The notes below the pieces were generated by a model. The model ran no database searches, was not told where the DNA came from, and saw only the letters and a program-made list of their open reading frames with translations. The translations under genes and the position numbers were made by a program. Shown here piece after piece: positions 33,610-41,057 of a DNA stretch of 64,000 nt (the stretch's first letter is position 1; each line of letters begins with the position of its first letter). The stretch comes from Octopus vulgaris (Eukaryota), in assembly GCA_951406725.2 (NCBI GenBank), contig OX597819.1, positions 21,886,001 to 21,950,000 of the forward strand. Reading direction: 5' to 3'.

Positions 33610-34521
33610 GATGGATGGATAGATAGATGGATAGATAGATAGGCATAGATAGATAGGCATAGATAGATAGATAGATAGATAGATAGATAGATAGATAGAT
33701 AGATAGATAGATAGATAGATAGATAGATAGGCATAGATAGATAGATAGATAGATAGATAGATAGATAGATAGATAGATAGATAGGCAAAGATAGATAGAT
33801 AGATAGATAGATAGATAGATAGATAGATAGATAGATAGATAGATAGGCATAGATAGATAGGCATAGATAGATAGATAGATATATAGATAGATAGGCATAG
33901 ATAGATAGGCATAGATAGATAGGCATAGATAGATAGATAGATAGATAGATAGATAGGCATAGATAGATACATAGATAGATAGATAGATAGATAGGCATAG
34001 ATAGATAGGCATAGATAGATAGATAGATAGATAGATAGATATAGATAGATAGATAGATAGATAGATAGATAGATAGATAGATAGATGATAGATAGATAGA
34101 TAGATAGATAGATAGATAGATAGATAGAAGAAGATAGATAGATAGATAGATAGATAGATAGATAGATAGATAGATAGATAGATAGATAGATAGATAGATA
34201 GATAGATAGATAGATAGATAGATAGATAGGATAGATAGATAGATAGATAGATAGATAGATAGATAGATAGATAGATAGATAGATAGATAGATAGATAGAT
34301 AGATAGATAGATAGATAGATAGATAGATAGATAGATAGATAGATAGATAGATAGATAGATAGATAGATAGATAGATAGGCATTGATAGATAGATAGATAG
34401 ATAGATAGATAGATAGATAGATAGATAGATAGATAGATAGATAGATAGATAGATAGATAGGCATAGATAGATAGGCATAGATAGATAGGCATAGATAGAT
34501 AGATAGATAGATAGATAGATA
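33610..34521. repeat. (GATA)n array with GGCA variant units, 3' flank of the Tx1 element
   Basis: About 910 bp of TAGA repeats interrupted by GATAGGCATA. Confidence 0.97.
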
Positions 34522-34825
34522 ACTTTTTATTGTAGCCACACAGGGCTAAACACAGAATAAAAATGGACGAAATACAATGTAGAATTTTTTCTTTTCGAGG
34601 TGGGATGGGTGGGGCAAGAAAAAAAAAAAAAAAAAAAAAAACGTTTGATCAATAGGGATCTGTGGGTTGTGTGGTGTATAAAAAAGCAATATATATATAT
34701 ATATAAGGTTCACAGTTTAGGTGTAGTCTTGGAAAGAAAAACCTACAAAAAAGACCAAGGTCACCTCAGGCAATTCGAAAAAGAACACATGAGTAAGTCG
34801 CCTTACTTCTCGTTGTCTCTTTTGG

Positions 34826-37800
34826 TTACAGATTTATGCTTAAAATAGTGTCGTCTTTCATACTGACCATTTTTGCCACTTTTACCCACTTTTTATTAAA
34901 ACATTCGTTCGACAAAGCCTTCCTCTCTATTCTCATCCTCCTTTTCAAGTGGTACTTGAAAAAGTTGACGAGAGACTGACCAGAGAGGAAGGTGTTTGTT
35001 TGCAGTCCTTTCAAACGCGTCCACCACACACATTCTTTCGCCATAGCCATCAGCGTAACGAAAACCGTTTTCCCTTCCCGTTTAAAGGAAGGTGGTGGAA
35101 CAATATTCACAATAGACTCGGCCGATAGGCGAGCCTGACCTACACGTGACAACAGCTGTTCGACGAAGGACCACAGCTCTGAAATATCTGGACACTGCAC
35201 GAGTGCGTGCAGAACGGTTTCGTCGCTCTGACCGCATCTCGGGCAGGTCGGTCCGGTGATGGTTTTCGAACCGTGTCTGTAGCTCTTCTCTCGAACAGGT
35301 AGTGCGTCTCGATAGCACTGCCAAGCCAGGGATTTCTGGAAGTTATCCATAGGCCCCGGCCCGAACGTCGTCCTGAACAGGCGGGTTAGGAATTCCTCGT
35401 CGACGCCCAGGTTTGCCCCGAGTGTGTCGTCGGACCTCCCCTCCACTAGTCCTCTATAGAACGCTTTAGTCGTTTGGAAGTTGCACAAGTTTGACCCCGG
35501 TCGGCAGAGCTGCTGTAGAGCTTGGCGACACTCTCGGTGCCAATCGCCCAGTTTCGGTCTCTTTTTGATCCACGTTTGCAGTTCGGTCAGTGAGACGAGC
35601 TGCGGGAAGTCGCGCCTCACAAACGGCGCCCACACCTGTTCACCGTCGTCGATGAATTTCCAGAGATGTCGCAGTCTCAGCGCATGCCTGCGCATCATCA
35701 ACCACGGCATGCCCAGTCCTCCATTCAACGGATGTTGACAGCAAATGGACTTCCTCACCATCGGAACGCCACCCTTCCACAGGAAGCGGAAGAGTATGCG
35801 TTCCAGTTTGGTGATGGTGGCGTCGGGACAAGGTACGACGGTCAGGCGGTAATCGATGACGGATGCGATGTACGCGTTCGCCACCTCCGCCCGGCCTTTT
35901 AGAGACAGCTTTCTCTCGGCCCATGTTTGGCTGAGAGCGACCACTCTACTCGTGATCTCGTCCCAGTTCTTATCCATTTGGAGGTCCGGACTGAACCAGA
36001 CCCCGAGCAATTTAACCGGTCCGTCCGTCCAGCGTCCCACTACTGAGCCGCAGTCGGACGGCATGGGCTTGCTTCTCCAGGTGCCGAGTAGCAAACCCAC
36101 TGACTTTTCCGGGTTAATCTTTGCTCCCGTCACCGTTTCATATTTTCTTAGTGTCTCGCCGACCAGCTCGATGTGCTGGTAGCTCGACACTATGACGGTG
36201 ACATCGTCCGCATATGCCGACACGCTCGTCCCGCAACCCAGTTCCCGTGGGATGCCCCTCAGTGTCGCCAGCTTCCGCAGTAGCGGCTCGAGAGTCAATA
36301 CATACAGAAGCGCCGACAGGGGACACCCCTGACGGACCGAACGCGTGATGTCAAACGGTTTAGACAGGTGACCGTTTACCCGAATCACCGATCGGATGCC
36401 GCTATACAAGGCAGCGATCCAACCGCGGAAGACGGGACCGAAGCCAGCCGCCCTGAGGACGGCCGCCAAGTACCGATGGTCGACCCTATCGAAGGCTTTA
36501 GACTGATCCAAATTTATCAGCGCCCCACCCATGCCAGGATCCTTAACTACCCTGTCCACAATGTAGCGCATCAGATGGAGGTTGTCATGTATGGTTCTGC
36601 CCGGCACGGCGCATGTTTGCGCCCTGTCGACCAGTTTACCAATGACAAGCGCCAACCTCTCGGCTATTACTTTGGCCAAAATTTTCAAATCTGCGTTGAG
36701 CAGAGTGATGGGCCTGAAATTATCTATAAAATTCCCCTTGTTTGAGTCTTTCTTCAGCAACGTCACTGCACCTCGGCTCACGAAACCGGGGATTCTCCCG
36801 TTTTGTTGCCAGTTGCAGTAGACTGATGCCAAGAGGTCGCCAAACAAGTCTGGCATTCGACAATACAGCTCGTAGGGTAAACCATCCAATCCAGGCGACT
36901 TATCCCTCGCGCAGCCCGCCATCGCATCCCACACGTCAGCGGCTGTGATGGGACTTTCACAACACTCCGCCTCTCTTGCCGAGAGCCGCGGCAGGTCGGT
37001 CAGGTAGGCACTGAAATCCATCCCTCGTTCCGACCCACCACTCGCACCAAACAGTCGAGCAAAGTGCTGTTGAAAGGCCTCACACATCCTTTCGGGTTCG
37101 AGTAAACTGCATCCCTGTTGATCTATTAGAGACCGAATGGTTGATCTGTTGCCACGCTGCGCCTCCGCTACCCGGGCCTCTCGCGCAGCTTCAATCCCTT
37201 CGTTCCTTAAGGCACGCATTTTAGCTCTGACGACGCAACCTTCGTGCTTGGCGTTGAGGTGTTGGTCGAGGGCCATCCTCGCAGCTAGCACGTTGGTTGC
37301 GCTGCCAGTGGTAAGTGCCTCTTCTAGTTTCTTAACTAAGTCTCCCTCTACTCTATTTCGTTCTATCGCTAATTCCTTGCTAAACCTAATTGATTCCGAT
37401 TTTATTGCCATTTTCAGGGCGTACCACCAGCGGTTGTTAACGACCGCTCCCGTCAGCGCCCTCTTAATTAACTCGCTAATCCGGTTCCTGTAAACCTGTC
37501 GCGCTAACAGCGACGTGTTCAGTTTCCAGTAACCGGGACCCTGCCTATGTGTTTTATCTAAGTCGAGCGTACACGTAACAAATTTGTGATCTGTGTAGCT
37601 GACTATTTTAAATTGTGGACATCCTACACTATCCCTATCCGCTGTCCTGCATAGAATTCTATCTAGATAAGATCTCGACGATCCGACGCGGTTTGTCCAA
37701 GTCCACGTTGGCACGTTCGGATGGTCGAGTCGGAACCTGTCAGACAAATGGAAACGTCTGAGCAGGTCTTTGAGGCTCTTACACCCCCTTCTATTCCTAT

Positions 37801-40204: not shown

Positions 40205-40404
40205 TTTCTAATGTCGAGAAGAAAATAACAGAAATGAAATGGGGTCGAAACTGCCCCTAGGGGCGAATTCCTCCCTTGGAATGGCACTCAAATGAAAGTT
40301 GGTTGCCTTACACACCTTATTTGCAAAAATCTACACAAAAATTGGCCTATAAATAGTCAAAATAAATGATTACCTTCGGAGCTGAAACGACATCACATCC
40401 GTCA

Positions 40405-41057
40405 ATAGATAGATAGATAGATAGATAGATAGATAGATAGATAGATAGATAGATAGATAGATAGATAGATAGATAGATAGATAGATAGATAGATAGATAG
40501 ATAGATAGATAGATAGATAGATAGATAGATAGATAGATAGATAGATAGATAGATAGATAGATAGGCATAGATAGATAGGCATAGATAGATAGATAGATAG
40601 ATAGATAGATAGATAGATAGATAGATAGATAGATAGATAGATAGATAGATATATAGGCATAGATAGATAGGCATAGATAGATAGGCATAGATAGATAGAT
40701 AGATAGATAGATAGATAGATAGATAGGCATAGATAGATAGATAGATAGATAGATAGATAGGCATAGATAGATAGATAGATAGATAGGCATAGATAGATAG
40801 ATAGATAGATAGATAGATAGATAGATAGGCATAGATAGATAGATAGATAGATAGATAGATAGATAGATAGATAGGCATAGATAGATAGATAGATAGATAG
40901 ATTGATAGACAGATAGATAGATAAATTGATAGACAGACAGATAGATAGATAGACAGACAGACAGGTAGATAGATAGATAGATAGATAGATAGATAGATAG
41001 ATAGATAGATAGATAGATAGATAGATAGATAGATAGATAGATAGATAGATAGATAGA
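40405..41057. repeat. (GATA)n array with GGCA variant units, 5' flank of the Tx1 element
   Basis: About 650 bp carrying the same GATAGGCATA variant as 33610-34521. Confidence 0.97.

Follow-up and report, generated by a model that had tools for sequence, protein, structure and literature searches.

An intact Tx1-type LINE lodged in a split GATA array of Octopus vulgaris, with a probable preference for (GATA)n microsatellites

A stretch of 64,000 nucleotides from Octopus vulgaris (contig OX597819.1 of assembly GCA_951406725.2, positions 21,886,001 to 21,950,000; this whole stretch is called the window hereafter) holds, on its minus strand at 34522-40404, a long interspersed nuclear element (LINE) of 5,883 bp that lies inside a GATA microsatellite. 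We conclude that it is probably a young, autonomous, Tx1-type LINE of octopods, which inserts with a strong preference, and in a fixed orientation, into (GATA)n microsatellites. The sequence-only reading of this stretch had proposed that the element splits one array, that it lacks poly(A), that its two open reading frames (ORFs) are open amid decayed transposable elements, and that it is an intact, young LINE of Tx1 type. All these points were borne out by the observations described below.

Both flanks of the LINE were GATA arrays on the plus strand, in the same orientation. The array on its 3' side (33610..34521) counts about 221 units, which appear as (TATC)n along the element strand, and the array on its 5' side (40405..41058) counts about 158 units. 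The variant unit GATAGGCATA was found 14 times in the left array and 9 times in the right one, and in none of the four other GATA arrays compared in the window (3242-3334, 15873-16049, 53428-53795 and 61249-61395); one extra copy, on the opposite strand, sits at 59475, outside any array. This confirmed that the LINE insertion split one older, pre-existing GATA array. A de novo tail as the origin of both flanks was ruled out by the variant units common to both, and, with the first variant unit placed 7 units away from the element's 3' end, the left flank is not a freshly made tail. An assembly artefact was ruled out as well, the LINE being covered in all 30 bins and in all 4 public runs. At the junctions themselves, the 200-nt 5' untranslated region (UTR; 40205..40404) abuts the GATA array without intervening sequence. 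On the sense strand, the 304-nt 3' UTR (34522..34825) ends with AATAAA plus 4 nt and passes at once into (TATC)n, poly(A) being absent. The pure repeat units beside the junctions number 7 on the left and 39 on the right; because both junctions sit in pure repeat, a target-site duplication is unreadable. The share of the window taken up by GATA arrays is 1.4% without the split array and 4.0% with it.

The flanks of other copies were assessed in contigs from 4 of 20 matching public runs (X8 and X4, large; X7 and X1, small), which were aligned to the LINE and its adjoining sequence (18 and 20 nt). The figures given here concern the best-supported rows, namely the best 15 of 482 joints, the best 12 of 320 rows of table 5c and the best 24 of 2,312 loose ends. 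Among these 15 joints, 14 led to the 20-nt ATAG stub at 40405, and did so from 14 different internal positions located 35-1,309 nt from the 3' end of the LINE. All were same-strand skips, in the orientation of the window copy, and 13 of the 14 were common to X8 and X4, that is, to two organisms and two studies. These joints match what is expected of 5'-truncated copies residing in GATA arrays, and a 3' tail cannot explain them. The LINE contains no run of two GATA or TATC units, so it offers no internal cause of mis-joins. Likewise, the best rows of table 5c all ended at 40405 (12/12), mostly with ATAG phase between; one of them, from X1, was repeat only and uninformative. None of the 24 best loose ends fell at the 3' terminus. 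On visual inspection, about half of them were diverged homologous sequence, several were too short to judge and about four were unrelated, two of these on the 5'-junction side. The 3' part of ORF2 had about ten times the summed contig depth of ORF1, which fits 5' truncation, depth not being the same as copy number. Microhomology at the 15 joint places was not clearly raised (mean 1.33 nt vs 1.03 background). From the best 15 of 482 joints, the GATA preference of the LINE is thus well supported, the strength of that preference not being given by ranked rows; for comparison, the Kojima criterion for a target-specific Tx1 family is the same repeat on >20% of flanks. As for the earlier expectation that other copies would also be flanked by GATA, the abutment in a fixed orientation held among the best-supported joints.

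Several observations weigh against this interpretation. None of the 14 GATA joints was present in the small runs X7 and X1. Among the 12 'behind' loose ends listed, two were by eye unrelated to either LINE or GATA (X8 38778 and X1 39635), and X7 35650 was ambiguous. Ranking by support gives GATA joints that recur an advantage over unique flanks seen once, and contigs combining a unique flank with little LINE sequence may escape alignment. Moreover, the hairpin loop that contacts DNA in the apurinic/apyrimidinic-type endonuclease (APE) of the element has 9 residues as in L1, not 11 as in Tx1L of Xenopus, and a sister group with 41-44% ORF2 identity has no GATA flanks.

Target-primed reverse transcription is established for LINEs, and we propose a mechanism along the same lines. 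The LINE encodes ORF1p and an ORF2p whose APE and reverse transcriptase (RT) are intact. The APE would nick the GATA-reading strand, and the resulting 3'-OH would prime reverse transcription at the 3' end of the RNA. With AATAAA placed a mere 4 nt before the end of the element, the transcript probably continues into (UAUC)n for a few units, and this extension would pair with the nicked strand, no poly(A) being copied. The 5' end would then be joined within the same array, which would yield many truncation points; in the joints listed above, 5'-truncated copies join (ATAG)n directly, oriented as the window copy. Most likely, the target is chosen by an endonuclease preference helped by RNA-target pairing, and we rank this ahead of a choice led by the RNA. 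The Tx1L endonuclease nicks its own target (PMC1950540), and pairing between RNA and target is reported to assist priming in I, R1Bm and R2Ol (PMC6007223).

A GATA preference led by the RNA is a tentative possibility, clearly less probable than the above explanation, with which it overlaps. Here the endonuclease would be relaxed and only GATA nicks would be extended, via (UAUC)n pairing, so that a new copy would owe its target to the flank of its source copy, and the APE would not encode it. The missing poly(A), the position of AATAAA 4 nt from the LINE end and the L1-like length of the APE hairpin loop all speak for it, as do the sister group, which has the same AATAAA end and very different junctions, and the correlation between 3' repeat and target site in RTE elements (PMC6007223). 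Against it, the Tx1L endonuclease is sequence-specific alone, and the 11-residue loop of Tx1L, when grafted on L1, did not transfer the target, which indicates that specificity is not set by loop length alone (PMC1950540).

We consider it quite improbable that the joints reflect nothing more than a loose affinity for microsatellites or AT-rich repeats, or else chance followed by retention, with a few per cent of thousands of copies lying in GATA and being picked out by the GATA stub of the query. It is true that the joints were ranked and seen through their best rows, that the element is of high copy number (15,322 contigs aligned in X8 and 18,884 in X4), that the window is rich in repeats (133 tandem-repeat rows) and that some loose ends were not GATA. 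However, all 14 listed GATA joints share a single orientation, and no pile of loose ends appeared at the 3' terminus among the rows listed. In addition, even if all 2,312 loose ends were non-GATA, 481 joints would amount to 17%, against 1.4-4% expected, on the assumption that the remaining joints also lead to the stub.

Very improbable is the idea that the element itself makes (TATC)n as its tail, with new copies entering the tails of older ones or another GATA-carrying repeat family: the head-to-tail arrays of the sister group, an R4/Dong-like fragment of the window that follows a repeat-ended 3' end of the same family and the 18-20 nt of flank used in the contig alignment would favour it, but the first variant unit 7 units from the 3' end, together with the same variant in the 5' flank, makes the array older than the insertion, no LINE 3' end was found behind the 5' array, and blastn detected a single copy of the LINE within the 64-kb window.

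The element is an L1-group retrotransposon of the non-LTR kind (lacking long terminal repeats), with ORF1 followed by an ORF2 that carries an N-terminal APE, an RT and a C-terminal cysteine motif. ORF1 (38333..40204, read from 40204 to 38333 on the minus strand) is open over 623 aa. A spacer of 66 nt (38267..38332) separates it from ORF2 (34826..38266, read from 38266 to 34826), which is open over 1,146 aa; stops and frameshifts interrupt the other transposable element fragments noticed in the window. Pfam recognized in ORF2 Exo_endo_phos (the APE, residues 20-208), RVT_1 (the RT, 507-757) and a zf-RVT/CCHC-type region (978-1032 and following), and the RT holds YADD at residue 685. The APE domain spans 37553..38266, and its catalytic positions N8, E37, Y112, D141, N143, D202 and H227 align with those of the L1 endonuclease (EN). 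A model of the APE built from 49 sequences reached a predicted local distance difference test score (pLDDT) of 95.6, and its top structural match was L1 EN, with a template modelling (TM) score of 0.85; from a single sequence, the model was of low confidence (pLDDT 41). By sequence, the top match of ORF2 among solved structures was human L1 ORF2p (E 4e-58 over residues 6-871), R2 being farther away (E 2e-21). The predicted fold of the 3' UTR was no better than that of shuffled sequences (z -0.65).

RNA-binding domains and a zinc knuckle in ORF1 are typical of Tx1, and human L1 ORF1 is not known to carry a zinc knuckle. In the octopus element, ORF1 shows one zinc knuckle at residues 337-352, below the Pfam cut-off, and its residues 120-360 have a feature-based resemblance (0.91-0.93) to ZCCHC3-type RNA-binding domains plus knuckle, including RBD_ZCCHC3 clusters. 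No sequence homologue of ORF1 was found among 872 candidates; ORF1 matched that of the sister group weakly. Membership of Tx1 is likely. Incidentally, human ZCCHC3, the namesake of these domains, suppresses L1, and the available text of PMC10351740 makes no mention of a Tx1-ORF1 origin of ZCCHC3.

The closest proteins to ORF2 were P0001 (71%) and one from Argonauta hians (63%), followed by pieces from Acanthosepion; a piece of 55 aa from Octopus bimaculoides showed 89% identity. The named close relatives of the LINE were all cephalopod, which makes an octopod the most likely host. A FastTree phylogeny was built on 112 RT rows, none of them a named Tx1 or a vertebrate L1, and was rooted at the midpoint, 5 of 116 matches having been dropped for short coverage. 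It grouped the window protein, P0001 and Argonauta in one clade (100), with 39 unnamed proteins as its sister (100). A larger clade of 72 rows (98) comprised the octopus group, fish elements with ZCCHC3-type domains and an amphioxus element, and plant L1 stood apart. Metagenome loci L001-L080 were mostly relatives at 22-36% (best segments at most 48%) and had GATA runs of three units in 0/80 cases; these loci are unsuited to testing the targeting of the octopus LINE because they are too distant. The exact 3'-end pattern of the LINE had no match in genome_contigs, and no relative of the LINE was found in viral_contigs.

The sister group consists of proteins P0003-P0041 and loci L081-L100, and its identity to the octopus LINE extends over nearly the full length of ORF2. 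All 20 loci form head-to-tail arrays with a period of ~6.4-6.8 kb (for example, L096 3864-5008 and L084 6315-7390), and ORF2 is open in L096. Similarity in the 3' UTR ends a few bases past AATAAA, with neither poly(A) nor a microsatellite at the junction. GATA runs of three or more units and transfer RNA genes were both absent (0/20 each), no Rfam match was obtained in the 6 loci scanned, and no telomere repeat was seen at the array junctions. Since these elements have the same 3' end and no GATA, the lineage has in common an end lacking poly(A), but not the GATA target. Self-targeting, or a telomere-like arrangement, is a possible explanation for the arrays. As a side observation, L081-L100 all come from one genome bin that bears a bacterial label in genome_contigs, and the name of protein P0154, which is 62% identical to ORF2, also derives from a bacterial bin; LINE arrays in such a bin are most likely eukaryotic host DNA.

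A decayed relative, of Tx1 type, lies in the window itself at about 11690-12990 on the minus strand and retains part of ORF1 and the start of ORF2. On the element strand its 5' side abuts (TTC)n (12999-13102), which is the Koshi target, and an unrelated LINE fragment adjoins its 3' side. This one case possibly represents a sister family with another microsatellite target. A wider proposal, which we hold to be rather unlikely, is that a poly(A)-less, invertebrate branch of Tx1 type targets largely via its own read-through RNA end and switches target fast, with (TATC)n here, (TTC)n in the decayed relative and its own 3' end in the tandem sister group. If targeting by the RNA end were true, the GATA family would play a major part in splitting and shaping the GATA arrays of octopus, and the LINE could be retargeted by changing a few RNA bases.

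Mutsu, at 5S, is one of the Tx1 families with a defined target. Targets described for Tx1 also include Tx1D, U2, (TC)n, (TTC)n, (TTCC)n, (TTTC)n, Mariner, Harbinger and LTR elements (PMC4494074), and, further, telomeres (PMC10088271). The microsatellite-specific families that the sequence-only reading had named, Kibi at (TC)n and Koshi at (TTC)n, are indeed described; together with the crocodilian Tx1-1_Crp group at (TTCC)n/(TTTC)n, these teleost families are, like the octopus LINE, two-ORF, APE-bearing elements of the L1 group residing in microsatellites (PMC4494074). Read on the element strand, the octopus repeat (TATC)n is one base away from the crocodilian (TTTC)n, provided that the published targets are written in the same orientation (PMC4494074). 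With its GATA/TATC target and its mollusc host, the octopus LINE differs from the (TC)n, (TTC)n, (TTCC)n and (TTTC)n of the Kibi/Koshi branch; its way of working resembles that of Kibi and Koshi, but with its differing target it is not counted as one of them. Tx1L is also an APE-RT LINE with a target preference, but it targets a transposon, and its hairpin loop is two residues longer (PMC1950540). Human L1 ORF2p (PDB 8uw3, 1vyb, 7n8k) was the best match to octopus ORF2 in both sequence and fold, with catalytic residues kept; yet human L1 has a poly(A) end and a TTTT/AA preference. In other clades, Waldo (ACAY), Mino (AC) and Dong (TAA) (PMC3812793) as well as Togen (TG; PMC4640811) hide in microsatellites as the octopus LINE does, with other targets, none of which is GATA in the text available. 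The literature search, which included PMC8869645, PMC8967140, PMC3747384 and PMC7140322, found no GATA-targeting Tx1 or other LINE family in the parts of these articles at hand; Repbase was outside its scope, and Fig. 3 and the supplements of PMC4494074 may list more. PMC7265360 and PMC4245944 supplied nothing beyond background.

We therefore see in the octopus LINE an additional target, GATA/TATC, for a known microsatellite-seeking strategy; this target and one more phylum join the short list of microsatellite-seeking APE LINEs. How such LINEs are targeted is described as not well understood (PMC3812793), and control by the endonuclease vs RNA pairing becomes directly testable with an intact copy that lacks poly(A) and has a simple repeat as its target. 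The instability of GATA marker loci in octopus may likewise be due to LINE insertions. In contrast, the suggested value of the element as a site-specific integration tool was overstated. GATA/TCTA arrays are common dispersed repeats, listed also as human microsatellite loci (PMC3812793), and because they are many and dispersed they provide neither a safe harbour nor a single-site system.

Regarding age, near-identical public contigs were found, one matching over 1,960 nt with 2 differences (X1) and another over 1,065 nt with 4 (X7). Contigs at least 99% alike to the LINE numbered 3,023/15,322 in X8 and 4,588/18,884 in X4. Such close matches, together with both ORFs being open, fit a young family among older relatives. 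L1-Tx1 elements are active in Octopus vulgaris, with 13 families and 421 recent insertions (PMC13282606); the words GATA and target are absent from the available text of that article. At position 39034, in ORF1, contigs of X7 and X1 hold 12 extra in-frame bases, relative to which the window copy has a short deletion.

Other repeats of the window deserve a brief description. At 5330-6120 on the minus strand lies a decayed 3' LINE fragment with a restriction-like endonuclease motif, which we take, from its motifs, to be R4/Dong-like. Its 5' side is joined to (TAA)n (6122-6211), the described target of Dong, and another (TAA)n occurs at 4768-4833. The region 29802-31450, on the plus strand, shows, one after another, an R4/Dong-like 3' end (29802-29897), (CTA)n and a 5'-truncated copy sharing that 3' end (~31362-31450), that is, a copy placed behind its own family's repeat. 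An open stretch at 59170-59526 on the minus strand is presumably, by its motif, the C-terminal part of a CR1/L2-type ORF2. Finally, 28523-29160 contains a 317-bp unit duplicated perfectly in tandem, to which sequence at ~16960-17100 is similar; this is probably a short interspersed nuclear element (SINE) or an assembly duplication.

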